Shown: positions 5,614-29,021, counted from the stretch's first letter. The stretch: DNA of 64,000 bases from Tagaea sp. (GCA_965228135.1 OZ245798.1:247656-311655), one strand, 5' to 3'. Program-made: numbers and translations. Notes: a model not told the origin generated them from the sequence alone.

Positions 5614-5651
5614 CAGCCGCGATGACGCGGCGGCGATCGGGGAGGAAGCGA

Positions 5652-9585: not shown

Positions 9586-11142
9586 ATGACGAAAGTTGAC
9601 CTGACGATCGGGGTGGATGTCGGCTCGACGAGCGCGCGGGCCGTCGTCTATTCGCGCGACGGAAAGGCGCTGGGCGGCGCGCAAACCGCCTTCGCCATCC
9701 GCCGCCCGGCACCGGATTTCGCGGAACACGATTCCGGCGAGATCTGGCGCGCGGTCGTGACATCGGTCAAAGCGGCGATGGCGGCGTCGGGGGCCAAACC
9801 CGGCGCCGTCGCCGCCATTGGCTTCGACGCGACATGCTCGCTCGCCATGTTCGACGCGGCGGGCGCGCCCGTGGGCGTGTCCGACGACGAAGATCGTTGG
9901 AACGTGATCATGTGGGCCGATCACCGCGCGATCGGTGAAGCGACGGAAATCACCGCCAAGCAGCATCGCGTGCTCGACTATGTCGGCGGCGTGATGTCGC
10001 CGGAGATGGAGACGCCGAAGCTCCTCTGGCTCAAGCGGAACTTGCCGGCGAAATGGCGGCGCTACGGCTTGGCGCTCGATCTCGCCGATTTCCTTGTCTG
10101 GCGCGCGACGGGCGAAGTGACCGGATCGGCCTGCACGCTGACCTGCAAATGGACCTATCTCAACCACGAGAACCCGGGCTGGCAGGCGGATTTCCTCGCC
10201 GCGATCGGCCTCGACGGCGCATGGGCGAAACTGCGCATCCCGGCGAAAGCAGCGCAGCTCGGCGATCGGGCGGGGCGTCTGTCGGCCGAAGCCGCCGCCG
10301 AGCTTGGCCTTGAACCCGGTATCGCCGTCGCGGTCGGCTTGATCGACGCGCATGCGGGCGGGCTGGGGCTATTGGCCGGAACGGCATCGGCGGAATTCGA
10401 TCGCGCGATCGCGCTGATCGCGGGCACGTCGAGCTGCCATATGGCGCTGTCGCCAAGCCCCCGCGCCATTCACGGCGTGTGGGGCCCGTATTTCGGCGCG
10501 ATGATGCCGGGGCTGTGGCTCAACGAAGGCGGGCAATCGGCGACCGGCGCGTTGCTCGACCATATTCTCGATTGGCATGCGGAAGGGCGCAAGCTCGGCT
10601 CCGATCGCCATGCGATCCTGGCGAAGCACATCGCGGCGCGGGCGCCGGATTACGCGGCCGATATGCTGGTCATACCGGATTTTCGCGGCAATCGCTCGCC
10701 GCTCGCGCGGCCCGAGTTGAAGGGGGCGATCTTCGGCCTCGAACTCGATTCATCGTTCGAAAGCTTGGCGCGGCTCTATCACGCGACGGCCGTGGGCATC
10801 GCCTATGGCACGCGCCATATCGTCGACGCGATGAACGCCAAGGGCTATGCGATCGATCGCTTGCATCTGACCGGCGGCCATTCGAAAGCGGATTACCTCA
10901 CCAAGCTTTACGCCGACGCGACCGGCTGCGACGTGATCCTGGCGGGCGAGCCCGATGCGGTGACGCTGGGCTCGGCCATCGCGGCGGCGTCGGCCGCGAA
11001 GCTCTATCCCGATCTTGCGGCGGCCGGGGCGGCGATGTGCCGGGAAGGGGCGCGCGTGCGGCCCGACGCGAAAGCCCGCACCATTCACGACAAGGGCTAT
11101 CGCCGCTTCCGCGCGGCGTTGGACGCGCGCGACAGGATCTAA
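9586..11142 (+). CDS. FGGY-family pentulose (ribulo)kinase
   Basis: GVDVGSTSARA, IGFDATCSL, IMWADHRA, MSPEMETPKLLW, NEGGQSATG, GNRSP motifs. Confidence 0.88.
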   Translation: MTKVDLTIGVDVGSTSARAVVYSRDGKALGGAQTAFAIRRPAPDFAEHDSGEIWRAVVTSVKAAMAASGAKPGAVAAIGFDATCSLAMFDAAGAPVGVSDDEDRWNVIMWADHRAIGEATEITAKQHRVLDYVGGVMSPEMETPKLLWLKRNLPAKWRRYGLALDLADFLVWRATGEVTGSACTLTCKWTYLNHENPGWQADFLAAIGLDGAWAKLRIPAKAAQLGDRAGRLSAEAAAELGLEPGIAVAVGLIDAHAGGLGLLAGTASAEFDRAIALIAGTSSCHMALSPSPRAIHGVWGPYFGAMMPGLWLNEGGQSATGALLDHILDWHAEGRKLGSDRHAILAKHIAARAPDYAADMLVIPDFRGNRSPLARPELKGAIFGLELDSSFESLARLYHATAVGIAYGTRHIVDAMNAKGYAIDRLHLTGGHSKADYLTKLYADATGCDVILAGEPDAVTLGSAIAAASAAKLYPDLAAAGAAMCREGARVRPDAKARTIHDKGYRRFRAALDARDRI

Positions 11143-11858
11143 GCGCGGGTCTTGGCCGTTTTCGGCGACAGCGCGGCCGTCAGATCGACGCGCTGGGGCG
11201 CTTCCTCGACGAAATGATGCGCGTGCATGTTGGTCTGCAGATGCGCCTTCATCAGCGCGATGCATTCCTTGGCCTTGCCGGCCGCAAGCAGATCGACCAT
11301 GCGCGTATGCTCGTCCACGACGCAGGCATGGCCGTCGGGCAGATACAGCGTGGTGATGATCGCCGCGCGCGCGACCAAGCCTTCCAGCAATTCCGCCAGC
11401 ATGCGGTTGCCGCCCAGCCGCGCGATCTGCAAATGGAAATCGCCCGAGAGATGGACGAATTCGCGCTTGTCGCGACGCTTGCGCGCGGCGGCCTGTAATT
11501 CGATATGCGCGCGCAGGGCGCGGATATCGTTGGCGGTGCAGTTCTTGGCGACGTCCTCGATGATCGCGGCTTCGATGACCCGGCGCGCGGCGTAAATATC
11601 GTCGGCGTCCTTCACCGTCGGCCGCGCCACGAAGGCGCCGCGCTGGGGCAGGATTTCGGCGATGCCGCGGAAGGAAAGCTCCTTCAGCGCGTCGCGCACG
11701 ATGGTGCGGCTGACTTCGAAGATGCGCGCCAGCTCGTCTTCGCCCAGCTTCGCGCCGGGCGGCAAGCGCCCGTCGCAGATCGCGTCCCACACCGCGGCGA
11801 CGATCGCTTCGCGGCGGTTTTCGCCGCTTCCGACACCCGGCATGTTGACGACGGCCAT
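11139..11858 (-). CDS. GntR family (FCD-type) transcriptional regulator
   Basis: wHTH LPPGAKLGEDELARIFEVSRTIVRDAL, FCD domain with FHLQIA...GN...EH. Start position uncertain. Confidence 0.9.
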   Translation of the reverse strand: MAVVNMPGVGSGENRREAIVAAVWDAICDGRLPPGAKLGEDELARIFEVSRTIVRDALKELSFRGIAEILPQRGAFVARPTVKDADDIYAARRVIEAAIIEDVAKNCTANDIRALRAHIELQAAARKRRDKREFVHLSGDFHLQIARLGGNRMLAELLEGLVARAAIITTLYLPDGHACVVDEHTRMVDLLAAGKAKECIALMKAHLQTNMHAHHFVEEAPQRVDLTAALSPKTAKTRA

Positions 11859-11946
11859 AGCGACTCTAAAGCTCCCCGAATTCGATACGCGTTATTGCCC
11901 CCGGGGGCTGGGCCCGTCAAGGCGCAGCAATGCCGCAGGCCGTCGT

Positions 11947-11974
11947 TGCACACAAATATTGCAATATGTATACA
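11947..11974. promoter_or_regulatory. Overlapping NtrC-like box and GntR-like palindromes
   Basis: TGCAC-N7-TTGCA (11947-11963; one mismatch to TGCAC-N7-GTGCA), ATATTGCAATAT (11956-11967) and TGTATACA (11967-11974). Confidence 0.55.
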
Positions 11975-12021
11975 AACGAGGCCTTTGCACGCCGCCTTGC
12001 GTGCCGGGAAGGGATTTTCCT

Positions 12022-12037
12022 TGGCATGGAACCTGCT
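12022..12037 (+). promoter_or_regulatory. Putative sigma54 (-24/-12) promoter
   Basis: TGGCATGGAACCTGCT, with GG (12023-24) and GC (12035-36) at canonical spacing, just upstream of the AtzD-family gene. Confidence 0.55.
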
Positions 12038-12049
12038 GATCGGACCGCC

Positions 12050-13102
12050 ATGAGTGCTTGCCACGTCTACCGTTTTCCGATGCGCGACCCCGACGATATG
12101 TCCGGTCTTGCCGGTTTGTTGGCCCAAGGGAAGATTGCCGCTTCCGACATCAAGGCGGTGTTCTGCAAGACCGAGGGCAACGGCCTCAACAACGACTGGA
12201 CACGGCTTTTCGTCGATCGCGCCGTGCGCATGACGATCGCGGCGGGGGGCGAGGCGGAAGCGGAGGCGTTGCGCCGTGCGATACTGGTCCTGATCTCGGG
12301 CGGCAGCGAGGGCGTCGTCTCGCCGCATATGCTGGTCTTCGCGGCGGCACCGCCCACGGGAACCGAACCGGGCTTGGCGCTGGGTATGGATATACGCGAT
12401 CTCGCCCCCGGCGATCTGGCGCGCAAATCACATGCGTCGATAACGGCCGACATGGTCCGCGCCGCGATGAAGGCGGCGGGTGCCGAGGATCCGTCGCAAG
12501 TCGGCTTCGTGATCGTGCGCGCGCCGTCCGATCCGACCAAGGGTGCCACGTCGCCGCGCGTGCGGGCCGCCGTGTCGCTGGGCGTGGCGCAAGCGCTGGG
12601 CGAGGTCGCCGGCGAAATCGACGAAGCCGCGTTCCTCAAGGATTTCTCGAAATTTTGCGGCCGCGTTTTCGTCGTCGCACGCGACGATACGACGACCCAG
12701 CAGGTGATCGTACTGGCGAACGCACCCGGCGGCACGAAGGGTTTGCGCGTCGCCGCGGGCACGCTGCGCGATCCGCTGGATTCGCCCGGTGTGGCCGCCG
12801 TTCTTGCCAAGCTTGGCATCGACGCGATGCCGCAGGCGTCGCCGGAAGCGAGCGCGCGGATCGTCGCCTCGCTGTCCAAGGGCGACCCGCCGGGCGACGG
12901 AAAAATCCGGGGCGCGCGCCACACGATGAACGGCGACGGCGATATCCATTCGCATCGCCACGGCCGTTCGGCCTATGGCGCGATGATCGCCTCGGTGATC
13001 GGCCATTCCTATTGCTTCGTCTCGGGCGGGGCGGAACATCACGGCCCCGACAATGGCGGCTTGATCGCGTTGATCGCGCGCGACGAAGGATTCTCGGTAT
13101 GA
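12050..13102 (+). CDS. Ring-opening amidohydrolase, cyanuric acid hydrolase/barbiturase (AtzD, Toblerone-fold) family, divergent
   Basis: KTEGNGLNNDWTR, SGGSEGVVSPH, RHTMNGDGDIHSHRHGR and C-terminal VSGGAEHHGPDNGG closely parallel AtzD motifs. Start could alternatively be 12026. Confidence 0.88.
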   Translation: MSACHVYRFPMRDPDDMSGLAGLLAQGKIAASDIKAVFCKTEGNGLNNDWTRLFVDRAVRMTIAAGGEAEAEALRRAILVLISGGSEGVVSPHMLVFAAAPPTGTEPGLALGMDIRDLAPGDLARKSHASITADMVRAAMKAAGAEDPSQVGFVIVRAPSDPTKGATSPRVRAAVSLGVAQALGEVAGEIDEAAFLKDFSKFCGRVFVVARDDTTTQQVIVLANAPGGTKGLRVAAGTLRDPLDSPGVAAVLAKLGIDAMPQASPEASARIVASLSKGDPPGDGKIRGARHTMNGDGDIHSHRHGRSAYGAMIASVIGHSYCFVSGGAEHHGPDNGGLIALIARDEGFSV

Positions 13103-14466
13103 CGACGACATTCCCCGAGGTGTGCGACCTCATCGTCGCGGGCGCCGTCATCGTGACCGGCGAGGACAAGGCGATCGGCGACGGCGCGGTCGCGGTGACG
13201 GGTACGCGCATCGTCGCGGTCGGCGAGACGAAGGCGATCGATGCCGCCTATACGGCGGCGCGCCGGATCGATGCGAGGGGCAAAATCCTGATGCCCGGCC
13301 TCGTCAATGTACACAATCATACGCCGCTGACGATCGTGCGCGGCATGGTCGAAGATCTCGGCTTCGCGCCCGCTTACACGCCGGGCATTCCGCAAGGCCA
13401 TTGGCTGTCGGACGAGGAAACCTATCTGTTCGCGCGGCTGGGGGCGTGGGAATTGCTGCGCATGGGCACGACCACGGCCGTCGATTACTACCGCAAACCC
13501 CAAGCCTGTGCGGCGGCGCTGGCGGAGACGGGCTTGCGCGGCTTCGTCGGCGGGCGCATTCACGACGCGGACACCGCCGCTTTGGCCGAAGGCGCTTGGA
13601 AGCATGACCGCAAGCTGGGCGAGGCCACGCTCGCCGAAAGCCAGGACATGATCGCCGCCTGGGACGGCAAGGCGGACGGCCGCATTCGCTGCTTCCATGC
13701 GCCGCATGCGCCCGATACGTGTTCGCGCGATCTGCTGCGCATCGTCGCCGATCTCGCCGCGAAGGACGGGCGCCAGGTGCATACGCATCTGGCGCAGTCA
13801 CCGATGGAGGTCGAGCGCGTCACCGCGCGCGAAGGCAAGGGGCCCGCGCAGTTGTTCGACGAAGTCGGTTTGCTGAACGGCGATCTGGTCGCCGCGCATT
13901 GCATCTTCCTGACGGACGACGATATCGCAATGGTCGGCAAAGCCGGCATTCGCGTGGCGCATGCGCCCGTGGGCAATGTGTCGGCGGGCATGATCGCGCC
14001 GATCGTAGCGCTCGAAAATGCCGGGGCAACGATCGCCATCTGCACCGACACCAAAACCGGCGACATGTTCGAATCGATGCGCACCGCCTTGGCCGTCGCG
14101 CGGGTGCGTGGGGCGGGTTACGCCTGCGATGCGCGCACGGTGTTCGGCTGGGCGACGCAAGGCGGGGCGAAGGCGCTGGCGATGGACGGCGAGATCGGCG
14201 TCTTGAAACCCGGCGCCAAAGCCGATTTCATTCTGCTGGATGCGGCCGCGCCGAATCTCCGCCCGATCGTCGACGGAATCGGTATCGTCGTGCATAGCGG
14301 CATCGGGCCGAACGTGTCGATATCGGTGATCGACGGCAAAGTGGTTATGGAAAACGGCAGACCGACTTTGCTCGACGCCGACGACGTGATCGCGGCGGCA
14401 CAGAAAGCCGCCGATCGTTTATGGGCGCGCGCGGGCCGGCCCGGCGTGATGATGGAGGCGGTTTGA
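13099..14466 (+). CDS. Metal-dependent amidohydrolase (MTA/SAH deaminase, AtzA/TrzN-like superfamily)
   Basis: MPGLVNVHNHT (HxH), HTHLAQS, AAHCI, CTDT. ATGA overlap with the upstream gene. Confidence 0.88.
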   Translation: MTTTFPEVCDLIVAGAVIVTGEDKAIGDGAVAVTGTRIVAVGETKAIDAAYTAARRIDARGKILMPGLVNVHNHTPLTIVRGMVEDLGFAPAYTPGIPQGHWLSDEETYLFARLGAWELLRMGTTTAVDYYRKPQACAAALAETGLRGFVGGRIHDADTAALAEGAWKHDRKLGEATLAESQDMIAAWDGKADGRIRCFHAPHAPDTCSRDLLRIVADLAAKDGRQVHTHLAQSPMEVERVTAREGKGPAQLFDEVGLLNGDLVAAHCIFLTDDDIAMVGKAGIRVAHAPVGNVSAGMIAPIVALENAGATIAICTDTKTGDMFESMRTALAVARVRGAGYACDARTVFGWATQGGAKALAMDGEIGVLKPGAKADFILLDAAAPNLRPIVDGIGIVVHSGIGPNVSISVIDGKVVMENGRPTLLDADDVIAAAQKAADRLWARAGRPGVMMEAV

Positions 14467-14468
14467 AC

Positions 14469-15362
14469 ATGACTCGCGATCTTCGCGGCTACGGTCCCAA
14501 TCCGCCTTTCGCCGACTGGCCGGGCAAGGCTCGCGTCGCCGTCACCTTCGTCGTGAATTTCGAGGAAGGGGCGGAGCTTTCCATCGCCGACGGCGACGAG
14601 CGCAACGAGAAGGTCTACGAGGTCGCCGACGAAGTGGTCGGCCGGCCCGATCCGTGCCTCGAATCCCATTTCGATTACGGCACGCGCGTCGCCTATTGGC
14701 GCATCGCCGAATTGTTCGATCGCTATGGCGTGAAGTTCACGCTGTCGTCTTGCGGGCGCGCCATCGAACGCTCGCCCGAAATCGCGATCGACGCGGCCAA
14801 GCGCGGTCACGAGATCGCCTGCCATGGCTGGCGCTGGGAAACCCATGCGACCATGCCGATCGAGCGCGAGCGCGAGGCGATCGCCAAGACGATCGCCGTG
14901 ATCGAGCGCACGACCGGTACGCGCCCCGTGGGCTGGCATACGCGCTCCGCGCCGTCGTCCAACACGCGCCAATTGTTGATCGAGGCGGGCGGATTCCTTT
15001 ACGACAGCGACGCCTATGGGGATGATCTGCCGTATTTCTTGGAAGTCGCGGGCAAGCGCCATCTGGTGATGCCTTATGCGTTCGACACGAACGATATGCA
15101 TTTCCATCAAGGTTTTCAGCGTTTCGCGCTCGGCTCGGATTTCTCGACCTACACGATCGACGCCTTCGACTGGCTGCACGACGAAGGTGCGAAGACCCCC
15201 CGCATCCTGCCGATCGGCCTGCATCTGCGCATGGTCGGAAGACCGGGGCGCATGGCGGGGCTGAAGCGCATCCTTGACCACGTCACGCGGCCCGAAGCGA
15301 AAGCCTGGTGCGCGACGCGCGCCGATGTGGCGCGGCATTGGATCGCGAAATTCGGCCGATGA
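14469..15362 (+). CDS. PuuE-like allantoinase / polysaccharide deacetylase (CE4) family hydrolase
   Basis: RDLRGYGPNPP..WPGKARVAVTFVVNFEEG, HEIACHGWRW, YDSDAYGDDLPY, LHLRMVGRPGR. Confidence 0.85.
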   Translation: MTRDLRGYGPNPPFADWPGKARVAVTFVVNFEEGAELSIADGDERNEKVYEVADEVVGRPDPCLESHFDYGTRVAYWRIAELFDRYGVKFTLSSCGRAIERSPEIAIDAAKRGHEIACHGWRWETHATMPIEREREAIAKTIAVIERTTGTRPVGWHTRSAPSSNTRQLLIEAGGFLYDSDAYGDDLPYFLEVAGKRHLVMPYAFDTNDMHFHQGFQRFALGSDFSTYTIDAFDWLHDEGAKTPRILPIGLHLRMVGRPGRMAGLKRILDHVTRPEAKAWCATRADVARHWIAKFGR

Positions 15363-16450
15363 CCGCCGCACTCGCCATCGCGCCGATCGGGCATCTCGAT
15401 ATTCGCGGCGTGTCGAAAGCCTATGGCGAAACTACGGTGCTCGATCGCCTCGACCTTGCCGTAGATCGCGGCGAGTTCGTGTCGCTGCTCGGCCCCTCCG
15501 GCTGCGGCAAGACGACGTTGCTGCGCTTGATCGCCGGATTGCAGAACGCCGATAGCGGTACGATTTCGGTCGATGGGCGCGAGATAACGCCGCTGCCCGC
15601 GCATAAACGGAATATCGGCGTCGTGTTCCAGAACTACGCGCTGTTTCCGCATCTGACGGTCGCGGAGAACGTCGCCTTCGGTCTCGACGCCAAGGGTGTG
15701 TCGAAAGCCGAAAGTGCGGAGATCGTGAAACGCACCCTAGAACTCGTGAAGCTCGCCGAAATGGCGCCGCGCACGATCTTCGCGCTGTCGGGCGGGCAGC
15801 AACAGCGCGTCGCCGTGGCGCGCGCATTGGCGATCCGGCCGAGCCTGCTGCTGCTGGACGAACCGTTCTCGGCGCTCGATCGCAAGCTGCGTGAATCGAT
15901 GCAGATCGATCTGCGCCGCTTGTTGCGCGAACTGGGTATCACCGCCGTGTTCGTGACGCATGATCAGGAAGAGGCGATGGTGATGTCCGATCGCATCGCC
16001 GTGATGAACCGCGGCGCCATCGAACAGCTTGCGCCGCCCAAGGCGATCTATGATCGCCCGGCGACGGCGTTCGCGTTGGAATTCCTCGGCGGTTCCACGC
16101 GGCTTCACGCGACGGTCGCCGCCGTCGATGGCGATTATGTGACGCTGGCGACGCCGCTGGGCCCCGTCATCGGCAAGGGGCATTTCCTGCGCGGTGTGGA
16201 CGTGCTCGCCGGGATTCGGCCGGAGAAGATCGCCGTCAATCGCCAGGCCGCCGCCGGGCGCAACGTCCTGCCCGCGCGCGTGATCGATCGCGTGTTCTTG
16301 GGCTCGAAGCTGATGGTGATATTCGAGGCGGGCGAGGGCGGCCAAGGTGTCGCCGAACTCAACGCCGCCGATATGCCCGATCTGCCGGCGGACGGGATCG
16401 TCGAATTTTCGTGGGCGATCGACGATACGCTGGTGTTTCCGCGCGCGTAA
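15359..16450 (+). CDS. ABC transporter ATP-binding protein (PotA-like)
   Basis: Walker A GPSGCGKT, LSGGQQQRVA, LLLDEP, VTHDQEEA, C-terminal TOBE-like region. Confidence 0.92.
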   Translation: MTAALAIAPIGHLDIRGVSKAYGETTVLDRLDLAVDRGEFVSLLGPSGCGKTTLLRLIAGLQNADSGTISVDGREITPLPAHKRNIGVVFQNYALFPHLTVAENVAFGLDAKGVSKAESAEIVKRTLELVKLAEMAPRTIFALSGGQQQRVAVARALAIRPSLLLLDEPFSALDRKLRESMQIDLRRLLRELGITAVFVTHDQEEAMVMSDRIAVMNRGAIEQLAPPKAIYDRPATAFALEFLGGSTRLHATVAAVDGDYVTLATPLGPVIGKGHFLRGVDVLAGIRPEKIAVNRQAAAGRNVLPARVIDRVFLGSKLMVIFEAGEGGQGVAELNAADMPDLPADGIVEFSWAIDDTLVFPRA

Positions 16451-16452
16451 AA

Positions 16453-16482
16453 GCGGCGGCGCCCCGGCCGGGACGCCGCCGT
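16453..16482. terminator. Putative bidirectional intrinsic terminator
   Basis: GGCGGCG-C-CCC-GGCC-GGG-A-CGCCGCC stem-loop flanked by AAAA (left) and TTCTT (right), between convergent genes. Confidence 0.6.
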
Positions 16483-16489
16483 TCTTGGA

Positions 16490-17128
16490 TTACTTCGCGC
16501 CGGGCTGTTTGACCATGCGCAGATAAGGCTTCAGCGTCTTCCAGCCATCGGGGAAGCGCGCCTTGGCGTCGACATCCGACAACGAGGGGACGATGATCAC
16601 GTCGTCGCCCTGTTTCCAATTCGCGGGCGTGGCCACTTTATGGCTGTCCGTGAGTTGCAGAGAGTCGACGACGCGCAGGATCTCCGCGAAGTTGCGGCCC
16701 GTCGCCGGCGGATAGGTGAGGGTGAGGCGCACTTTCTTATCCGGCGCGATCACGAACACCGAACGCACGGTCACGGTCGGATCCGATTTCGGATGGATCA
16801 TGCCGTAGAGCGTCGAGACCTTGCGGTCCGCATCGGCGATCAGCGGGAAGTTCAAGGCTTGGCCTTGCGTTTCCTTGATGTCCTCTGCCCATTTGCCATG
16901 GCTGTCCGGCGGATCGACCGACAGGCCGAGGATCTTGACGTTGCGCTTGTCGAATTCGGGCTTGAGGCGCGCGGCCTCGCCCAACTCGGTCGTGCAGACG
17001 GGCGTGAAATCCTTGGGGTGCGAAAACAGGATGCCCCAGCTCGATCCGAGATATTCGTGGAACTTGATCTTGCCTTGGGTGCTGTCCTGCTCGAAATCGG
17101 GGGCGATATCGCCGAGTTGAAGAGTCAT
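16490..17128 (-). CDS. 1-Cys peroxiredoxin (Prx6/LsfA-like)
   Basis: LQLGDIAPDF, FSHPKDFTPVCTTE, YPPATGRNFAEILRVVDSLQ, ATPANWKQGDDV. Confidence 0.95.
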   Translation of the reverse strand: MTLQLGDIAPDFEQDSTQGKIKFHEYLGSSWGILFSHPKDFTPVCTTELGEAARLKPEFDKRNVKILGLSVDPPDSHGKWAEDIKETQGQALNFPLIADADRKVSTLYGMIHPKSDPTVTVRSVFVIAPDKKVRLTLTYPPATGRNFAEILRVVDSLQLTDSHKVATPANWKQGDDVIIVPSLSDVDAKARFPDGWKTLKPYLRMVKQPGAK

Positions 17129-17267
17129 TTCGGTATTCTCCCGTACTGGACCGGCGTCCTTGTCGGGCGCTGCGGTCGTGGAGGGCAAGTATGTCCCGTT
17201 CGCGCGACCTGCGCACCAGCGAAACTTTCTTGATACCGCCGGTACTTTTTCGATAACCCTGCCGCGA

Positions 17268-18005: not shown

Positions 18006-18039
18006 GGAATCGTCGTTCTATGTTAAAAGAGCGGCGACC

Positions 18040-21085: not shown

Positions 21086-21918
21086 CGCGAATCTCCCTTG
21101 CCGCGCGACAGCAGCGCGCTGCACGCGACGATGGCGACGGCGAGGAACAGCAGGACCGTCGCGGTCGTAGCGCCCAAAGCTTCGTTGCGCATCAGCAGGA
21201 ACGCGCGGCCCGTGAGTGTGGCGAGCGTTTGGAAGCGGTCGCCGATCAACAGGCTGGGGATCACATACATCGACGTGGCGAGCGAGAACACGATCGACAC
21301 GCCGCCGACGATACCGGGCATGGCGAGCGGCAGTGCGACGTTGAAGAAGCGGAACACGGGCGGGGCGCCGAGCGTCGCCGCCGCGTCCTGCAAATTCGGA
21401 TCGGCGAGTTTCAGCACCGAATAGATCGGCAGGATCATGAAAGGCAGGAACACGTTCGCCGCGCCCATGACGAGGCCGTGTTCGGTGAACAGCAGCAGCT
21501 TGGGTTCGTCCCACACGCCGGTCGCGACGAGCAGGGCCGCGACGATCCCGTCGCGACGCAGCACGATCTGCCAGGCGAAGGTCTTGACGACCACGCCGAC
21601 CGACAGCGGCAGGATGATCGCGATCAGCATCGCGACTTGCACCGCACCTTTCGAGCGCGCCAGGGCGAGCGCCGTCGGATAGCCGAGAACGAGGCAAACG
21701 ACGGTCGTCCAGAACGCGACGCGCAGCGTGTTGCCGATGACGACCCAGTTGAACGGCTCGGACAGGAAGGTCGTATAGTTCGACAGCGTGAACCCGTCCG
21801 CCCCCATGAAGCCGCGCGCGACCAGCACGATCACGGGGATCGCGAACACGATCACCATGTAGATCGCCGCCGGTAGGGCCAACAGCAACACCGGATCGAA
21901 GCGGAGCCTCGTCGTCAT
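21082..21918 (-). CDS. ABC transporter permease (PotB-like)
   Basis: TM-rich, DPNLQDAAATLGA loop, ATGA overlaps with neighbours. Confidence 0.9.
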   Translation of the reverse strand: MTTRLRFDPVLLLALPAAIYMVIVFAIPVIVLVARGFMGADGFTLSNYTTFLSEPFNWVVIGNTLRVAFWTTVVCLVLGYPTALALARSKGAVQVAMLIAIILPLSVGVVVKTFAWQIVLRRDGIVAALLVATGVWDEPKLLLFTEHGLVMGAANVFLPFMILPIYSVLKLADPNLQDAAATLGAPPVFRFFNVALPLAMPGIVGGVSIVFSLATSMYVIPSLLIGDRFQTLATLTGRAFLLMRNEALGATTATVLLFLAVAIVACSALLSRGKGDSR

Positions 21919-23003
21919 GCGGCTTGGGCCTCGGCGGGATAGATCAGCGTGTCTTCCAGGCGCCACCACAAGGTCGTTGGGGTGCCGATGGCAAGACCCG
22001 GCGGCAGCGCGCTGGTTTCGACCATGGCACTCGCCCCGTTCGGGCCGGCGAGCAGCACATGGATGCGCGAGCCTTGGAAAATGATCTCCTTCACTTCGGC
22101 GTCGATGTAATTGACCGCTTCGCCCGGCGGCGGCGCGCCCAGCGCGATACGTTCGGGCCGCACGGCGAGGGTGACGGCGGAGCCGCGCGTATAACCGGCC
22201 TGGGCGAAGATCCGGCCGAAGGCGGTATCGACCGCCAGAATGTCGCCCTCGGCGGGGCCCGCCGTGCCGGCGATGCGCGTCGAATGGCCGACGAATTCGA
22301 GCACGAAGCCGGTCTTGGGCTTGTGATAGATGTCGAGCGGCGTCGCAAACTGTTCGATCGCGCCGCGGCTCATCACGGCGACGCGATCGGACATGACCAA
22401 CGCTTCCTCCTGGTCATGCGTGACCAGAACGGTCGTGATGCCGAGCGAGCGCAGGAGCCCCTTGAGCTCGATCTGCATATTTTCGCGCAGCTTGCGATCG
22501 AGGGCCGAGAACGGCTCGTCCAGCAGCATCAATTTCGGCGCGACGGCGAGCGCACGGGCGACCGCCACGCGCTGCTGCTGGCCGCCGGACAGGCCGCGCA
22601 CCGGACGATCGGCGAAGGCCGACATATGGACGAGGCCGAGAAACTTATCGATGGTCGCTTGGTGCTGGTCCTTCGGCACTTTGCGCGCGCGCAAGCCGAA
22701 GCGCACATTTTCTGCGACCGAGAGATGCGGGAACAGCGCGTAGTTCTGGAACACGACGCCGACGTCGCGCAGATGCGGCGGCGTGTTGGTGATGTCCTTG
22801 CCGTCGAGTTTGACGCGCCCCTGATCGGGGTTCATAAGCCCCGAGACGATGCGCAGCAAGGTGGTCTTGCCGCAGCCCGAAGGCCCGAGGAGAGAGACGA
22901 ACTCCCCTCGGGCGATCTTGATATCCACGCCGTTGAGCACGCGATGGCCGGCGAAGGATTTCTCCGCGCCGCCGACATCGAGAAATCCTTCGTTTCCGGT
23001 CAT
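21915..23003 (-). CDS. ABC transporter ATP-binding protein (PotA-like)
   Basis: GPSGCGKT, LSGGQQQRVA, LLDEP, VTHDQEEA. Start at ATG 23003 because the upstream part of the 843-aa ORF shadows the SBP gene. Confidence 0.92.
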   Translation of the reverse strand: MTGNEGFLDVGGAEKSFAGHRVLNGVDIKIARGEFVSLLGPSGCGKTTLLRIVSGLMNPDQGRVKLDGKDITNTPPHLRDVGVVFQNYALFPHLSVAENVRFGLRARKVPKDQHQATIDKFLGLVHMSAFADRPVRGLSGGQQQRVAVARALAVAPKLMLLDEPFSALDRKLRENMQIELKGLLRSLGITTVLVTHDQEEALVMSDRVAVMSRGAIEQFATPLDIYHKPKTGFVLEFVGHSTRIAGTAGPAEGDILAVDTAFGRIFAQAGYTRGSAVTLAVRPERIALGAPPPGEAVNYIDAEVKEIIFQGSRIHVLLAGPNGASAMVETSALPPGLAIGTPTTLWWRLEDTLIYPAEAQAA

Positions 23004-23029
23004 CGTATGCTTCTTCGCCGTGGGTGCGA

Positions 23030-24073
23030 TCAGAGCGACATTTCCTTGTCCCAGCGGGAGACCCAGCTGGCACGGTTGGTCGACACGTTCGCCCAATCGA
23101 TCGGGTGGATGACCAGCTTGTCGAGACCGGCGGGGGCGGGCACCTTGCCGTTGGTCGGCAACGCGTAGGTCGCAGCGGCGAGCTGCGCCTGGATTTCCGG
23201 GCTCAGCATCAGGTCGATATAGGCGGCCGCCATTTCGGGCATCGGGCCGTCCTTGACCAGCGCCACGCCCGACGGCATCGAGAACGTGCCTTCCTTGGGG
23301 GCGGCCAATTCGATCGGCGCGCCCTTCGCCTTGCGCGCCAGCGCCAGCGTCGAGATCGAGCCGTAGACCATGAACGCCTCGCCCTGTTCGAGCAGGTTGT
23401 AGGCTTGGCCTTCCTGCGTATAGGCCATCAGGATGTTCGGCTTCATTTCCTTCAGCTTGTCGAAGGCCGCGTCCATATCCTTCTGCGCTTCGGCCATCGG
23501 CTTGCCGGTCTTGAGGAACGAGGCGAGGAACAGGTTCATCACGCCTTCGGTGTTCTGCAGACCCGGCAGAATGACGCGGCCCTTGTACTTGGGATCGTAG
23601 GCTTCGGCCCACGACGTCGGTGCGGCCATGCGGTTCGTGTTGTAGGCGATGCCGACCCAGGGCTGCAGGTAGTTGACCCACATGCCGTCCATATGCGTCA
23701 CACCCGGCTTCAGCGAGGCGGCGTTCGGCACGACCTTGGGCAGCGGCGTCAACAGGCCTTCGGCGACGGCGGTGATCATCACCGGATCGTCCATCTGGAC
23801 GAGCGAGAGATACTGGCTGCCCTTGTTCTTCTGCATCTTCTCGAGATTCACGAGCGAGCGCGTGCCCTCGTAGACGACCTTGATGTTGTACTTCTTTTCG
23901 AAGGCCGGGATCATGATCTCGTTGGTCCAGGTCTGCTGGCTGGAAGCACCACCGACGACGAGTTCCTTGGGCTGGGCGCGGACGATCGCCGGGGCGGCGA
24001 GAATGCCGGCGCCGGCGAGCGACGCGGCAAGAAAACCACGGCGGCGCATGGCAAGGCGGGTCGGTTCGGTCAT
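23030..24073 (-). CDS. ABC substrate-binding protein (PotD/PotF-like), Tat-type signal
   Basis: MRRRGFLAASLAG...PAIVRAQ signal, GIAYNT, PTSWAEAYDPKYKGR, PKEG motifs. Confidence 0.9.
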   Translation of the reverse strand: MTEPTRLAMRRRGFLAASLAGAGILAAPAIVRAQPKELVVGGASSQQTWTNEIMIPAFEKKYNIKVVYEGTRSLVNLEKMQKNKGSQYLSLVQMDDPVMITAVAEGLLTPLPKVVPNAASLKPGVTHMDGMWVNYLQPWVGIAYNTNRMAAPTSWAEAYDPKYKGRVILPGLQNTEGVMNLFLASFLKTGKPMAEAQKDMDAAFDKLKEMKPNILMAYTQEGQAYNLLEQGEAFMVYGSISTLALARKAKGAPIELAAPKEGTFSMPSGVALVKDGPMPEMAAAYIDLMLSPEIQAQLAAATYALPTNGKVPAPAGLDKLVIHPIDWANVSTNRASWVSRWDKEMSL

Positions 24074-24152
24074 GAAGCTCTCCTGGTTTGGATGGGCGCC
24101 CGTGGGCGGGCGGCTCGGGATGGGGAAATTCGTGCTGATGTCGGGAGAGTTC

Positions 24153-24168
24153 AGCAATGCCCGTGCCA
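24153..24168 (-). promoter_or_regulatory. sigma54 (-24/-12) promoter for the ABC/racemase operon
   Basis: Minus strand reads TGGCACGGGCATTGCT, an exact match to TGGCACG-N4-TTGCW. Predicted +1 is near 24142, about 70 nt upstream of ATG 24073. Confidence 0.8.
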
Positions 24169-24216
24169 CAAGCCGAACCGCGCCAATTTGCGGGCGTTCC
24201 GGCCGCATCCGCGCTA

Positions 24217-24241
24217 GATTGGATACAATCATGTGTCCAAT
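24217..24241. promoter_or_regulatory. GntR-like operator candidates
   Basis: GATTG-GATA-CAATC palindrome (core TTGGATACAA), followed by an inverted related half (TGTGTCCAAT). Resembles the TGTATACA site next to the other GntR. Confidence 0.5.
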
Positions 24242-24342
24242 TCTCGCGCGTAATCGCGATTGGCGCCGAACGTGCAAAGGGTGGCGGGAGAGGCGCACGC
24301 ATCGCGCCGTCCGGAAACGCGAAACGACGGAAATCGAACGGT

Positions 24343-25149
24343 ATGCCGAATTCGAAGGCGTTTGCCGCCCGCCCGGCGGGCACTCGGCGGAAAAAAGCGA
24401 CGCAGCCGCCGAAAACGGGGGCGCGCGGACGGCGCGCGGGTGCCACGGCGGAAATCGTGTTCGAGCGCGTGGTCGAGGCGATTCAGTCCCATCGCCTGGC
24501 GCCCGGCACGCGCCTGATCGAGGAAAAGCTGGGTGCTTATTTCGGCGTCAGTCGCACGATCGTGCGCCAGGGGCTGGCGAAACTCGCGCAGGCGGGCTTG
24601 GTCGAATTGTCGCCGAACCAGGGGGCCCGGATCACCTGGCCCGACGCCAAGCGCACGGCCGACGTGTTCGACGCGCGCCGCCTGATCGAGATCGAGTTGG
24701 TCGCGCGCGTCGCTTCCAACGCCACGCCGGGGGATATCGCCAAGCTGCGCGCGCATTTGCGCACCGAGGATGGGGCCCGCAAGCGCGGCGACCGGATCGG
24801 CTTGGTGCGATTGACCGGCGAGTTCCATTTGAAACTCGCCGAGATGGCCGGGAACGCCATCATGGCGCGCACGCTGGCCGAATACGAAACGATCACATGT
24901 CTTGCGATCCTCGCGCATGACCGTACCGGGGAATCCGCGTGCCCGCCCGACGAGCACGCGTCGATCGTCGATGCGATCGAAGCGCATGACCCGCGCGCGG
25001 CGGCCGCGTTGATGCGCCGCCATCTCGACCATGTTCTCGCGGGCCTCGATCTCGATGCCGCCCCGCGCGACACCGATCCGCTGGGGGCGGCCTTGTCGCC
25101 GCGCCCGGCGGTGCCTCACCGCAGACGTCAAGGAAGGAGTCCGATATGA
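24343..25149 (+). CDS. GntR family (FCD-type) transcriptional regulator
   Basis: LAPGTRLIEEKLGAYFGVSRTIVRQGL wHTH, FHLKLAEMAGN...EH. ATGA overlap with dctP. Confidence 0.9.
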   Translation: MPNSKAFAARPAGTRRKKATQPPKTGARGRRAGATAEIVFERVVEAIQSHRLAPGTRLIEEKLGAYFGVSRTIVRQGLAKLAQAGLVELSPNQGARITWPDAKRTADVFDARRLIEIELVARVASNATPGDIAKLRAHLRTEDGARKRGDRIGLVRLTGEFHLKLAEMAGNAIMARTLAEYETITCLAILAHDRTGESACPPDEHASIVDAIEAHDPRAAAALMRRHLDHVLAGLDLDAAPRDTDPLGAALSPRPAVPHRRRQGRSPI

Positions 25150-26198
25150 AACTCGCATTCGCTGCCGGCCTTTTGGCCGCGTGCCTGGCGGCCGTTCCGG
25201 CCGTCCAGGCGCAGCAGAATCCCAACACCATGCGCATCGCCGGGAATTTCTCCTCGAATACCAAGCATGTCGACAACATCGAGAAGCCGTTCTTTCTGAA
25301 TCTGTCGACCTCCCTCGGCATCCCCATGACCGTCAACTACAACCCGATGGATGTGGTGAACGTGCAGGCGGCGGACGCGCTGCGCCTGCTGCGCTCGGGC
25401 ACGTTCGACGTGATGTCGGTGCAGATCGGCATGGCCTCGCGCGACGACCCCTTCTTCGAAGGCATCGACCTGATCGGCGTGTCGACCGACATGAAGCAGC
25501 TGCGCGCGGCGGTCGACGCCTATCGCGAGGCTTTCGACCAGCGTCTCCAGACCAAGTTCAACGCCAAGGTCATGACGCTGTGGCCGTTCGGCCCGCAGGT
25601 CTTCTATTGCAGCAAGGAGATCAAAACGGTCGATGACGTGAAGGGCCTGAAGGTCCGCAGCTTCACGCCGTCGATGGCCGCGTTGATCCAAAATCTCGGC
25701 GCCACGCCGATAACGCTGCAATTCTCGGAAGTCTATCCGGCGCTGCAACGCGGCGTGGCCGATTGCGGCGTGACCTCGCCGACCTCGGGCAATTCGGGCA
25801 AGTGGCCGGAAGTCACCTCGTACTTCCTGCCGCTGTCGGTCTCGGGTTCGGTCCAGGGCCACTTCATGAATCTCGACCATTGGAAGCGCTATACGCCCGC
25901 GATGCAGGCGAAGGTGCTGGCCGAGTTCAAGAAGATGGAGGATCAGATGTGGGATCTGGCCGATCGCGCGAACGGCGATGCGGTCAATTGCAATATCGGC
26001 AAGGATCCTTGCGTCGAAGGCACCAAGTACAACATGAAGCTCGTCGAGGTTTCGGCCGCCGACGAAAAGAAGATCAACACGGCGGTCACGGCCGTCGTTC
26101 TGCCGATCTGGAAGGAGACCTGCAACAAGGTCGATCCGACCTGCACGGCGACGTGGAACGCGACCGTCGGTCGTGTTCGCGGCTTCAAGATCGACTGA
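25146..26198 (+). CDS. dctP: TRAP transporter substrate-binding protein
   Basis: Signal peptide ending AQA, KGLKVR, FSEVYPALQRGVAD motifs, followed by dctQ and dctM. Confidence 0.9.
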   Translation: MKLAFAAGLLAACLAAVPAVQAQQNPNTMRIAGNFSSNTKHVDNIEKPFFLNLSTSLGIPMTVNYNPMDVVNVQAADALRLLRSGTFDVMSVQIGMASRDDPFFEGIDLIGVSTDMKQLRAAVDAYREAFDQRLQTKFNAKVMTLWPFGPQVFYCSKEIKTVDDVKGLKVRSFTPSMAALIQNLGATPITLQFSEVYPALQRGVADCGVTSPTSGNSGKWPEVTSYFLPLSVSGSVQGHFMNLDHWKRYTPAMQAKVLAEFKKMEDQMWDLADRANGDAVNCNIGKDPCVEGTKYNMKLVEVSAADEKKINTAVTAVVLPIWKETCNKVDPTCTATWNATVGRVRGFKID

Positions 26199-26214
26199 AC
26201 AAGCGTTAAGGAGA

Positions 26215-26239
26215 GGGGCGGCCCGGTCCAGGCCGCCCC
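26215..26239. other. Intercistronic stem-loop between dctP and dctQ
   Basis: GGGGCGGCC-CGGTCCA-GGCCGCCCC, a 9-bp perfect stem. Confidence 0.6.
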
Positions 26240-26258
26240 GATTCCTTCGAGGATAATC

Positions 26259-26840
26259 ATGGAAAATCCCGTCGGCAAAATCGCCGTGCCCGTCGCGCGC
26301 TTCGTCGCGATCCTTTGCGGTTACGGCGTATTGATTCTCTCCTTCGCGATCACGGTCGAAGTCGTGGGGCGGAAATTCTTCGGATTCTCCCTGCAAGGGA
26401 TCGACGATATCGGGGGCTATGCGCTCGCCATCGTCGCGGCCGTCGGCGCGTCCTACACGATGGCCATGCGCGGCCATACGCGCATCGACGTATTTTTGAT
26501 CCGCATGCCGGCGTTCTGGCAGGCCGTGCTGAACGCCGTCGCGATGGTCACGCTCGCCGGCTTCGCGATTTTCGCGCTTTACCGCGGCGAGGACGTATTG
26601 TCCGAAAGCATCGAATTCAGGTCCGTCGCGACCAATCCGCTGCAAACGCCGTTGTGGATCCCGCAGGCGACATGGCTGTTCGGCGTGGGCCTGTTCGCGC
26701 TTTTCGCGTCGGCTTATGCCGCGCACTCGCTTTATCTGCTCTTCGTGGATCGTCGCCGCCTTAATAACTTTTACGGCCCGGCGACCGCCAAGGACGAAGT
26801 CGATGCCGAACTCGAAGCGCGCAAGGAGGAAGGGCGATGA
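26259..26840 (+). CDS. dctQ: TRAP transporter small permease
   Basis: 4 TM segments, GHTRID motif, located between dctP and dctM. Confidence 0.88.
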   Translation: MENPVGKIAVPVARFVAILCGYGVLILSFAITVEVVGRKFFGFSLQGIDDIGGYALAIVAAVGASYTMAMRGHTRIDVFLIRMPAFWQAVLNAVAMVTLAGFAIFALYRGEDVLSESIEFRSVATNPLQTPLWIPQATWLFGVGLFALFASAYAAHSLYLLFVDRRRLNNFYGPATAKDEVDAELEARKEEGR

Positions 26841-28141
26841 TCGATCCGTCGACCGCTTTGATTGGTTTCGCATTGCTGATCGGCCTGATGGCGATCGGTC
26901 TGCACATCGCCTTCGTGATGTTCGCGATCAGCATGATCGGCGCCGTGATGTTCTTGGGCACACCGGCCGTGATGAATTTCGGCAACCAATTCTGGGGGGC
27001 CACGAACAATTTCGTGCTCGTCGCGATCCCGTTGTTCGTGCTGCTGGGCGAAATCCTGGTGCGCGGCGGCTTCACCGATCGCATGTATAAGGCGTTGTCC
27101 GATTGGCTGAACCCGCTGCCCGGCGGCTTGCTGCACACGAATATCGGTGCCTCGGCGATGTTCGCGGCCGTATCGGGTTCGTCCGTCGCCACGGCGGCGA
27201 CGATCGGCACGGTTGCGCTGCCGGCGTTCCGCAATCGCGGCTACGACGAACGCTTGGTGCTCGGCACCGTCGCGGCGGGCGCCACGCTCGGCATCCTGAT
27301 TCCGCCCAGCATCAACATGATCATCTACGGTGCCATGACCAACACGTCCGTCGGGCGGCTTTACGCCGCCGGCGTGCTGCCCGGCCTCGTGCTGACGGGC
27401 TTGTTCATGTTGGTCGTGATCGTGCTGTGCAAATGGCGCCCCGCCTTCGCGGGACCCGTGGAAGCGCGCGATCCGTTCCTGGTGCGTGTTGCGCGTTTGG
27501 TCGATCTACTGCCGCCGGCGGCGATCTTCGTCGCGGTGATGGGCACGATCTATGCGGGCTGGGCGACGCCCACGGAGTCCGCGGCGATCGGCGTCGTCGT
27601 CGCACTGGCGCTGGCGGCGTGCTACGGCAAACTCAATTTCCGCATGCTGCATGAAAGCTTCGTGTCGACCGTGTCGATCACGGCGATGATCATGCTGATC
27701 GCGGCGGCGGCGTTCTATTTGAACTTCGTCCTTGGCCTGATGGGTGTGCCGCAGGCCTTGGCGAACTACGTCAAGTCGATCGGCGCGTCCCCCGGGCAGA
27801 TGATCGCGATCCTGACCGTGTTCTATCTCATCCTCGGCTGCTTCCTCGATGCGTTGGCGATGGTCATCGGCACGATCCCGATCGTGTTCCCGCTGGTCGT
27901 GGCGATCGGCATCGATCCCGTGTGGTTCGGCATCTTCTTGGTGGTGATGGCCGAACTCGCGCTGATCACGCCGCCGGTCGGTATGAATCTCTACGTCGTG
28001 CAGGGTATTCGCGGCACCGGTACGATCACCGAAGTGATCGTCGGTACGCTGCCGTTCCTGTTGATGATGCTGTTGTTGGTTTGGTTGTTGTGGGTTTGGC
28101 CTGACATGGCGTTGTTGCTGCCGCGTCTGTCGTTCGGGTGA
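26837..28141 (+). CDS. dctM: TRAP transporter large permease
   Basis: AIPLFVLLGEIL, SGSSVATAATIG, GILIPPSI, ITPPVGMNL motifs. Confidence 0.93.
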   Translation: MIDPSTALIGFALLIGLMAIGLHIAFVMFAISMIGAVMFLGTPAVMNFGNQFWGATNNFVLVAIPLFVLLGEILVRGGFTDRMYKALSDWLNPLPGGLLHTNIGASAMFAAVSGSSVATAATIGTVALPAFRNRGYDERLVLGTVAAGATLGILIPPSINMIIYGAMTNTSVGRLYAAGVLPGLVLTGLFMLVVIVLCKWRPAFAGPVEARDPFLVRVARLVDLLPPAAIFVAVMGTIYAGWATPTESAAIGVVVALALAACYGKLNFRMLHESFVSTVSITAMIMLIAAAAFYLNFVLGLMGVPQALANYVKSIGASPGQMIAILTVFYLILGCFLDALAMVIGTIPIVFPLVVAIGIDPVWFGIFLVVMAELALITPPVGMNLYVVQGIRGTGTITEVIVGTLPFLLMMLLLVWLLWVWPDMALLLPRLSFG

Positions 28142-28145
28142 TGCG

Positions 28146-29021
28146 ATGAAGACACTGGCGCATCCGGGCCGGTTCGACAACACGCCGCTGCCCCATCGTT
28201 CCGTCCGCACTTGGCCGGGTGGGGCGAAGCTCGCGGTCTATGTGGCGCTCAATCTCGAAAGCTATGCGTTTGGCGAGGGGTTGAGCGAGGATATCGTGCC
28301 GGGCTCCGGTCAGCCCGACGTGCTGAACTGGTCGTGGCGCGAATACGGCAACCGTGTGGGCGCGTGGCGGTTACTCGACCTATTCAAGGAGTGTGAGTTG
28401 CCGCCGTCGTTGCTGGTCAATTCAACGATCTACGATCGCCACGCGCCGCTTGTCGCCGCCTATCGCGCGGCGGGTGCGGCGATCGTGGCGCATGGGCGCA
28501 CCAATAGCGAGAGCCAGGCGGGGCTCGACGTAGCGGGCGAACGCGCCTTGATCGTCGAGGCCCGCGACGCCATCGCCGCGCACGAGGGCAAAGCGCCGCA
28601 AGGCTGGCTGGGCCCTTGGATCGCCGAGACCGCGCGCACGCCCGATCTGCTGCGCGAGGCGGGGTTCGGCTATTCGCTCGATTGGTGCATGGACGATCAG
28701 CCCGTCGCGTTGAGAACGCGCACGGGCGATTTGCTGGCCGTGCCTTATCCGCAGGAGCTCAACGATTCGAACGCGATCGTCGCGCGTCGCCATTCCGCGG
28801 CCGAGTTCGCGGATATGATCGTGGCGCAGTTCGACGAAATGCGCGCCCAAGCGGCCTCGGGCCCTTGCTTGGTCATGGGGGTCGCACTCCACGCCTACGT
28901 CGCGGGGCAGCCCTTCAGGTTGCGCGCGTTGCGCAACGCGCTGCGCCATATCGCAGCGCCCCATGCCGACGTTTGGCGCACGACGACGGATGCGATCGCG
29001 CAGGCCTGGTCGAACGGTTAA
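28146..29021 (+). CDS. Polysaccharide deacetylase (CE4) / PuuE-like hydrolase, second copy
   Basis: WPGGAKLAVYVALNLE, REYGNRVGAWR, AHG, GWLGPW, DWCMDDQP, LHAYVAGQPFR. Confidence 0.82.
   Translation: MKTLAHPGRFDNTPLPHRSVRTWPGGAKLAVYVALNLESYAFGEGLSEDIVPGSGQPDVLNWSWREYGNRVGAWRLLDLFKECELPPSLLVNSTIYDRHAPLVAAYRAAGAAIVAHGRTNSESQAGLDVAGERALIVEARDAIAAHEGKAPQGWLGPWIAETARTPDLLREAGFGYSLDWCMDDQPVALRTRTGDLLAVPYPQELNDSNAIVARRHSAAEFADMIVAQFDEMRAQAASGPCLVMGVALHAYVAGQPFRLRALRNALRHIAAPHADVWRTTTDAIAQAWSNG

Follow-up and report, generated by a model that had tools for sequence, protein, structure and literature searches.

In a 64-kb window of Tagaea sp. DNA (GCA_965228135.1 OZ245798.1:247656-311655; "the window" denotes this whole stretch of 64,000 nucleotides), the 18 genes between positions 11139 and 29021 form a putative hydrolytic N-heterocycle catabolic cluster drawn from three uncharacterised enzyme subfamilies. 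Judged from the sequence, there is about an even chance that this is a composite, sigma54-controlled island for the import and hydrolytic breakdown of small nitrogen-rich ring compounds with release of ammonia, the likeliest substrates being cyclic ureides that carry amino or carboxy groups and are akin to pyrimidine or purine oxidation products. The island, probably a new route of nitrogen scavenging, is neither a known pathway nor a single ancestral unit, and consists of three parts: (i) set A', comprising a PotD-type ATP-binding cassette (ABC) importer (genes G10-G13), an amidohydrolase with an HxxQ motif (G3), a PuuE paralogue (G4) and a GntR regulator (G1); (ii) set B, comprising an HxxE amidohydrolase (G8), two AMDase-like proteins (G7 and G9), a distant PuuE-like hydrolase (G18), a second GntR regulator (G14) and a tripartite ATP-independent periplasmic (TRAP) transporter (G15-G17); and (iii) the AtzD-family protein G2. 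Sets A' and B are two separately conserved, uncharacterised gene sets that are interleaved in the window, and in the genus Tagaea the rare G2 heads the A' enzyme operon. The original prediction for this region, made from the sequence alone, had proposed one pathway seeded on the protein encoded at 12050 (G2). This proved too simple, since two independent sets exist elsewhere and the AtzD-like gene is a rare add-on. Literature searches returned no paper on the cluster, on the clade to which G2 belongs or on HxxQ amidohydrolases.

G2 passes the subfamily model TIGR02714 (ring-opening amidohydrolase) and scores 274.8 bits against the AtzD equivalog NF052395, for which the cut-off is 360. In PDB searches the best matches are cyanuric acid hydrolases (CAHs; 183 bits), followed by barbiturase 5hwe (151) and the class V protein 5hy0 (125). 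Alignment to the solved CAHs and to homologues shows that domains 1 and 3 are intact, with their Lys/Arg/Ser sets. G2 as a whole retains two Ser-Lys dyads and three Arg, and the metal loop is kept. Domain 2 carries Arg for Lys162 (VRAP), Val for Ser233 and Arg for the Gly that follows Ser233 (FVVARDD vs SxSSGVE), and about 15 residues are deleted from it. In AtzD, the K162R and S233A variants are each folded yet inactive (PMC3758960), and a 2013 survey of 68 proteins found Lys162 and Ser233 kept throughout the Toblerone-fold family, barbiturase included (PMC3758960). This domain-2 dyad was proposed as the nucleophile and termed strictly conserved by Shi et al. (PMC6557486), while Peat et al. 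prefer Ser85-Lys42, a dyad that is retained in G2.

In a maximum-likelihood tree the sequences without the dyad all grouped in a single clade (100/100 support) on a long branch, the G2 lineage of the window being an early offshoot. Such proteins are rare: 5.8 billion proteins contained six clusters 75-96% identical to G2 and nine at about 49%, with the rest at or below about 43%, and the whole family has 56 members at E≤1e-30 among 1.84 billion representatives. G2 is under purifying selection, its ratio of nonsynonymous to synonymous substitution rates (dN/dS) being 0.10-0.18 (0.02-0.07 for most neighbours). The possibility that G2 is a decaying gene was rejected on the grounds of this ratio, of the intact frame in all relatives and of a conserved promoter. 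According to an AlphaFold2 model built from a shallow alignment (predicted local distance difference test 68, predicted template-modelling score 0.77), G2 keeps the Toblerone fold, with template-modelling scores of 0.76-0.83 to CAH structures (E about 1e-33) and 0.77-0.82 to barbiturase and the class V protein.

Genes were called from the G+C content of codon positions (GC3) with inspection of start codons, since at a G+C content of about 65% raw lists of open reading frames from the window are noisy, and were identified by Pfam, NCBIfam and PDB sequence searches. The families and the boundaries given in the original prediction proved correct by frame/GC3 analysis and by these searches, and a peroxiredoxin missing from its list (G6) lies in mid-island. 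The genes are as follows.

11139-11858, minus strand: G1, GntR/FCD regulator (Pfam GntR and FCD), divergent from the AtzD-like operon
12050-13102, plus strand: G2, AtzD/TrzD-family protein (PF09663, E=3e-80)
13099-14466, plus strand: G3 (Amh1), TRZ/ATZ-type amidohydrolase with HxxQ (Pfam, NCBIfam)
14469-15362, plus strand: G4 (PuuE1), close paralogue of PuuE allantoinase (PDB 3cl6, E=1e-82)
15359-16450, plus strand: G5, orphan PotA-like ABC ATPase (Pfam ABC_tran and TOBE_2)
16490-17188, minus strand: G6, 1-Cys peroxiredoxin (Pfam, NCBIfam)
17268-18005, minus strand: G7, AMDase/EutA-like single-Cys protein (PF17645)
18040-19545, plus strand: G8 (Amh2), TRZ/ATZ-type amidohydrolase with full HxH/HxxE (family and PDB searches)
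19542-20285, minus strand: G9, second AMDase-like single-Cys protein (PF17645)
20285-24073, minus strand: G10-G13 (ABC#2), two permeases, ATPase and PotD/PhnS-like binding protein (Pfam, NCBIfam)
24343-25149, plus strand: G14, second GntR/FCD regulator (Pfam)
25146-28141, plus strand: G15-G17, DctPQM TRAP transporter (Pfam)
28146-29021, plus strand: G18 (PuuE2), distant PuuE-like/polysaccharide-deacetylase-fold hydrolase (TIGR03212, 107 bits; 3cl6, E=7e-26)

Stop and start codons overlap at G2/G3, G4/G5 and G10/G9. For G13 the start at 24073, preceded by an AGGAGA ribosome-binding site, was taken in place of the longest-frame start. Family scans of the 18 genes returned no amidase-signature, isochorismatase-type, biotin-carboxylase or urease domain, and no specific NCBIfam name was obtained for the racemases, the binding proteins, the GntR proteins or the oxygenase described below.

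The gene sets were traced in related loci (designated by L numbers), those around the AtzD-like gene by genome and metagenome scans with tblastn mapping. In set A', G3 carries HxxQ (residues 230-233) in place of the deaminase HxxE, and the form H-L-[AHS]-Q is present in all relatives examined. The full COG0402 HxH/HxxE motif set is thus lacking, and all specific NCBIfam models score below their cut-offs. The G3 family is widespread (52-64% identity), its members being annotated at source as methylthioadenosine/S-adenosylhomocysteine deaminase or plain amidohydrolase family protein. AtzC, a ring-amine hydrolase of the triazine amidohydrolase type, is likewise without the HxxE Glu (PMC4577212). 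G4 scores 321 bits against TIGR03212 (cut-off 424.6) with the PuuE motifs conserved relative to 3cl6. A Reyranella operon contains, in order, a binding protein, an ATPase, two permeases, a G3 orthologue, a racemase and a G4 orthologue, the transporter subunits being 62-68% identical to G13-G10; across Reyranella and Affinirhizobium, orthologues of G10-G13 are 50-68% identical and those of G4 are 62% (Reyranella) and 52% (Affinirhizobium) identical. Affinirhizobium carries set A' at one locus, with a divergent Amh1 and, in addition, an amidase, two racemases and another amidohydrolase. At the loci L050 and L051 set A' is accompanied by Asp/Glu-racemase-fold genes, and in L051 also by a second amidohydrolase; orthologues of the set B Amh2, AMDase-like and PuuE2 proteins are absent from both. 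The G3 orthologue adjoins a G7-type AMDase-like gene in Azorhizobium (L048) and a fusion containing a thymine 7-hydroxylase (T7H)-like oxygenase in Desertibaculum.

Set B was found, with neither A' nor G2, on six unrelated contigs (L042-L047), those named being from Uliginosibacterium and from metagenome-assembled genomes (MAGs) labelled 'Rhizobiales bacterium' and 'Proteobacteria bacterium'. All six carry orthologues of G8, G9 and G18 together with a TRAP or major facilitator superfamily transporter; orthologues of G7 and homologues of G14 occur in four each, and an extra Asp/Glu racemase in five. G7 orthologues (52-71%) lie beside Amh2 in L042-L045, where orthologues of G15-G17 are also present, and the G9 orthologue directly precedes Amh2, with an overlap in L043 and L047 and a gap of 26 nt in L046. 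G14 homologues are 38-47% identical (L043, L044, L045 and L047) and G18 orthologues 57-78% (all six loci). In L044, one gene of the M20 family and one of the transthyretin family are found close to set B. The expectation in the original prediction that the genes would co-occur in other genomes was thus borne out for subsets of them, which are found together in unrelated genera.

The amidohydrolase of set B belongs to a large family (more than 120 clusters at least 58% identical) and has the COG0402 motifs HVH and HILE with His and Asp in VAHNP and GTDE. Of the two deaminase-type amidohydrolases that had been predicted, G8 with its HxxE stands as such, and G3 with its HxxQ does not. The prediction of two single-Cys proteins of the racemase/decarboxylase fold was confirmed for G7 (GTS...Y...CTN) and G9 (GSK...Y...CTN), which, compared with AMDase 3dtv, both have the Gly74/Cys188 pattern and the dioxyanion hole. 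They share fold and pattern with AMDase of Bordetella bronchiseptica and with EutA of ectoine utilisation, and in the dioxyanion hole the Tyr is conserved, with Thr/Ser in G7 and Ser only in G9. Known AMDase neighbourhoods resemble the island in being rich in TRAP and ABC transporters, and according to the same source it is not yet known what AMDases act on in nature (PMC4996985). G7 and G9 differ from both families in scoring far under the respective cut-offs (71.8 and 48.8 bits against the AMDase equivalog NF052327, cut-off 225), and from AMDase also in that their partners in the window are amidohydrolases, not mandelate-racemase-type enzymes. G18 scores 107 bits against TIGR03212 (cut-off 424.6). 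The TRAP binding protein G15 contains an LKVR motif, whose arginine is read as carboxylate-binding. PDB sequence searches with the two binding proteins gave remote matches only, uninformative on the ligand; pyroglutamate, the ligand in 2pfy and 2pfz, the closest solved TRAP binding proteins, is a weak hint at carboxylated pyrimidines and cyclic amide acids, and not a test.

Nine Tagaea-like genomes or MAGs share the arrangement of the window (86-96% identity), and the full 18 kb was found only in Tagaea-like genomes. Gene order, with the A' enzymes and the A' transporter split by set B genes, is kept in all nine where contigs reach, while the island centre is structurally variable. In L003 (13542-17264), L004, L022 and L024 the stretch from G4 to G7 includes the whole of a second ABC importer (ABC#1), made up of an ATPase, two permeases and a binding protein that is 50% identical to G13. 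ABC#1 is represented by the ATPase G5 only in the window and in two others, and is absent from L020 (12420-14048), the closest relative. This pattern looks like the stepwise decay of a redundant transporter with G5 as a remnant, piecemeal loss in relatives being expected if ABC#2 is redundant with ABC#1. Of the PotABCD-like transport named in the original prediction, G10-G13 is therefore a complete set, and the first ATPase is an orphan left from another ABC system. The peroxiredoxin G6 is present in the window, L003 and L020 and absent from L002, L004, L023 and L024; it was rejected as a pathway member on account of this variable presence, and is probably a passenger. One Tagaea-type island (L002; 89-100% protein identity) comes from an assembly named for the cyanobacterium Halotia wernerae UHCC 0503, and its contig probably stems from an associated heterotroph. 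Two gene 'families' called in related loci (F5 and F18) were discarded as antisense artefacts of the GC3 gene calls, as judged by Pfam and tblastn.

The flanks of the island are unrelated to it: TetR, TauD, a sugar-type ABC system and an FGGY kinase on the left, and a PAS protein, a TAXI binding protein and a NitT/TauT ABC system on the right. A gene at 4874-5533 on the left gave weak sub-threshold matches to TetR-type models (ScbR, MtrR) and none to TauD; it is followed by the TauD-family gene at 5622-6524.

A relaxed sigma54 pattern (TGGCAY-N5-YTGC) was scanned over the whole window and matched at two sites only, each directly upstream of a main operon and beside a divergent GntR gene.

12022-12037, plus strand: sigma54-type -24/-12 promoter TGGCATGGAACCTGCT (pattern match at 12022-12036), 13 nt before the G2 start codon
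24154-24168, minus strand: sigma54 promoter TGGCACGGGCATTGC of the G13-G9 operon (perfect consensus), located ahead of a good ribosome-binding site and of the corrected G13 start

Both predicted promoters have the -24 GG and -12 GC with the right spacing in an upstream position, and the one at 12022 is 100% conserved in nine orthologous intergenic regions with variable flanks. The sigma54 promoters of the original prediction are thus present at the head of the two main operons, and this type of control fits the nitrogen scavenging that it had proposed. The gap between the 12022 promoter and the G2 ATG is only 13 nt, and Met11 is invariant in the family; the short gap would imply either a nearly leaderless transcript or a downstream start. 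No enhancer-binding protein was found among the genes scanned in the island and its immediate flanks, so the activator would be unlinked (for example, NtrC). Between the first GntR gene and its operon, the palindromes ATATTGCAATAT and TGTATACA lie within 11940-11975 as a pair that is conserved in relatives; between the second divergent GntR gene and its operon, a palindrome ATTGGATACA-N4-TGTGTCCAAT lies at 24219-24243. Both sites share a TGTATNCAA-like half-site and, from their sequence and position, may be GntR operators. The A' transporter, which in other genera partners G3 and G4, stands in the window on the far side of G7-G9, and the start of the set B gene G9 overlaps the stop of the A' permease G10, an arrangement of translational coupling. 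This coupling, the shared promoter type and the loss of ABC#1 favour functional integration in the genus. A single substrate is not thereby proven, because either set is found without the other in different organisms and the ABC and TRAP systems point to differently charged ligands.

A sister clade of G2, with 41-49% identity, has members in Roseococcus, Sediminicoccus, Acetobacteraceae MAGs and soil metagenomes, and the same Tagaea genomes carry one as a second copy, paired with an oxygenase and located elsewhere without set B (L033 vs L020, one assembly). In every locus that reaches past the sister-clade gene, a DIOX_N/2-oxoglutarate-Fe(II) oxygenase lies directly 3' of it, mostly with overlapping or near-abutting stop and start codons; such pairs were mapped at L006:10001-12024, at L008:10001-11994 and in 20 other loci. 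The best solved relative of the oxygenase is a fungal thymine dioxygenase (thymine 7-hydroxylase; E=3e-46), and this T7H-like partner is a weak hint at carboxylated pyrimidines and cyclic amide acids. Sister-clade genes are often accompanied by a divergent GntR gene, a G3 homologue and a PotD-type ABC system, the GntR proteins (40-51% identical to G1) being present at many but not all of these genes. In Roseococcus and Sediminicoccus the pairs adjoin DUF1501/DUF1800 genes, PuuD urate oxidase and 5-hydroxyisourate (HIU) hydrolase (L006:3487-8544; L011:5783-9929), and the Roseococcus locus (L006) also has an allantoate-amidohydrolase-like M20 gene.

These features can be assembled into a tentative route. 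Substrates would enter via the ABC and TRAP systems, after which G8 and/or G3 would remove an exocyclic amino or imino group or hydrolyse an amidine, in parallel to the action of AtzC before AtzD. G2 would then open a six-membered ring at an imide (-CO-NH-CO-) edge, using one of its two remaining Ser-Lys dyads, with the altered domain-2 corner (Arg, Val, Arg, Asp) holding the substituent that replaces the third carbonyl of cyanurate. The PuuE-like enzymes would open a five-membered ureide or hydrolyse a ureido or formyl product, and the AMDase-like proteins would decarboxylate or epimerise an acid that is malonate-like or alpha-substituted. Local repression would fall to the GntR proteins, and the unlinked sigma54 activator would impose nitrogen control. 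Candidate substrates include uracil, barbiturate or triazine rings with carboxy or amino substituents, and hydantoin-type purine or pyrimidine oxidation products. The substrates guessed at in the original prediction, a 5-substituted barbiturate or a purine-oxidation product, would also agree with these findings.

Several observations weigh against this composite catabolic reading. With the full island restricted to one genus, common descent rather than selection could account for its synteny; A' and B are each found by themselves in other organisms, no other examined locus has both, and they may serve different compounds. The two transporters point the same way: judging by its type (PotD/PhnS), the ABC binding protein would take a cationic or zwitterionic ligand, and the TRAP system an anionic one, which together hint at more than one substrate. 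G3 is without the usual catalytic Glu, and G2 may not be a hydrolase at all, because the dyad held by one group to be the nucleophile is missing. Finally, downstream steps into central metabolism are not encoded in the island.

The alternative that survives best, possible though clearly less probable than the composite catabolic island, is that two or three independent systems for different compounds merely lie side by side, with the AtzD-like gene in a small operon of its own. It would explain the loci with set B but neither A' nor G2 (L042-L047), those with A' but no set B orthologues (L050 and L051), the sister-clade copy that stands apart from set B in the same genomes, and the structural variability of the island middle. 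It does not readily account for the translational coupling of set B G9 to the A' transporter, for the splitting of the A' enzymes and transporter by set B genes in an order kept among the relatives, or for the location of the only sigma54-type promoters of the window at both operons. In other genera, moreover, G7-type AMDase-like genes pair with both amidohydrolase families.

A variant of purine or allantoin catabolism is unlikely. In such a variant, G4 would act as a genuine allantoinase, the amidohydrolases as guanine/8-oxoguanine-type deaminases or analogues of allantoate amidohydrolase, and the racemase-fold proteins as analogues of allantoin racemase. The closeness of G4 to PuuE (E=1e-82, motifs conserved), the PuuD and HIU hydrolase genes adjoining sister G2 loci (with an M20 gene in L006), and the M20 and transthyretin-family genes near set B in L044 are in its favour, and the combination of PuuE-fold and Asp/Glu-racemase-fold proteins with a GntR-type regulator and a transporter recalls the allantoin racemase and PuuE/HpxB systems of Pseudomonas and Klebsiella (hpxAB). 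Unlike in those systems, however, both PuuE-like proteins of the window fall under the PuuE equivalog cut-off (G4 with 321 vs 424 bits), and the racemase-fold proteins are AMDase-like, with one Cys where racemases have two. Family scans of the region detected no uricase, HIU hydrolase, OHCU decarboxylase, allantoicase, AllC or ureidoglycolate enzyme, the purine-pathway genes for HIU hydrolase and uraD being absent from the window, and the known route leaves no place for a ring opener of the AtzD family.

The known triazine system AtzC-AtzD of Pseudomonas sp. ADP is similar to the island in that an amidohydrolase-superfamily gene lies beside a Toblerone-fold ring opener; G2 has the AtzD/TrzD fold, the metal loop, three of the Arg residues and two of the Ser-Lys dyads, and its partner G3, like AtzC, is without the HxxE Glu. 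It differs in that the partner in the window is COG0402-type and not CodA-type, in that the genes of the window are chromosomal and sigma54-driven, and in the domain-2 dyad, which in G2 has given way to Arg (for Lys) and Val (for Ser), with Arg for Gly and the deletion in addition. An s-triazine route proper, from melamine, ammeline and ammelide to cyanurate with TriA/AtzC-like amidohydrolases and G2 as cyanuric acid hydrolase, is very improbable: the best family names for G3 and G8 (N-ethylammeline chlorohydrolase, TRZ/ATZ), the presence of AtzA and TrzN structures among the PDB matches and the CAHs as best solved relatives of G2 speak for it, but all family scores are far under their cut-offs, G2 carries K162R- and S233-type changes of which the tested counterparts each abolish AtzD activity, the region has no BiuH, AtzE/F/G/H or TrtA, and the clade is rare and found in soil, water and sludge metagenomes, not spread on catabolic plasmids. 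Biuret hydrolase and AtzEFGH/allophanate genes were likewise absent among the 18 genes and the scanned flanking genes. The sub-threshold score of G2, its domain-2 changes and the missing downstream genes uphold the view of the original prediction that the genes do not correspond to the canonical route for cyanurate or for barbiturate.

The third point of comparison is the oxidative pyrimidine pathway of Rhodococcus with its barbiturase, together with the class V cyclic amide hydrolase 5hy0 of Frankia (the PDB title of which reads 'orotic acid hydrolase', a further weak hint at carboxylated pyrimidines and cyclic amide acids, its chains being named only ring-opening amidohydrolase). These belong to the same family as G2 and share the idea of a pyrimidine-type ring opening, and the pairing of sister-clade genes with a T7H-like oxygenase also points to pyrimidines. 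In contrast to them, G2 is closer to CAH than to either protein, and the dyad lost in G2 is retained in barbiturase according to the 2013 survey; family scans of the 18 genes found neither uracil dehydrogenase nor ureidomalonase. A more specific proposal, built on the sequence comparisons and offered as a long shot, is that the dyad-less clade opens uracil-type rings that are carboxylated or otherwise substituted at positions 5/6 (for example orotate or iso-orotate, from the paired T7H-like oxygenase), that the Arg-rich corner binds the substituent, and that the AMDase-like proteins decarboxylate a ureido-substituted malonate. If true, this would be a fourth, fully hydrolytic route of pyrimidine catabolism and would give the AMDase fold its first natural role.

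For the Toblerone-fold family, which has two assigned activities and a nucleophile dyad on which groups disagree, a natural and selected clade without the domain-2 dyad bears on the nucleophile question and points to a third substrate class. The AMDase-like proteins, whose natural function has been open for decades, are found, here as in several other genera, in catabolic operons together with amidohydrolases and transporters. Sets A' and B occur widely among Proteobacteria of soil and water, and their assignment would fill a gap in the recycling of organic ring nitrogen.

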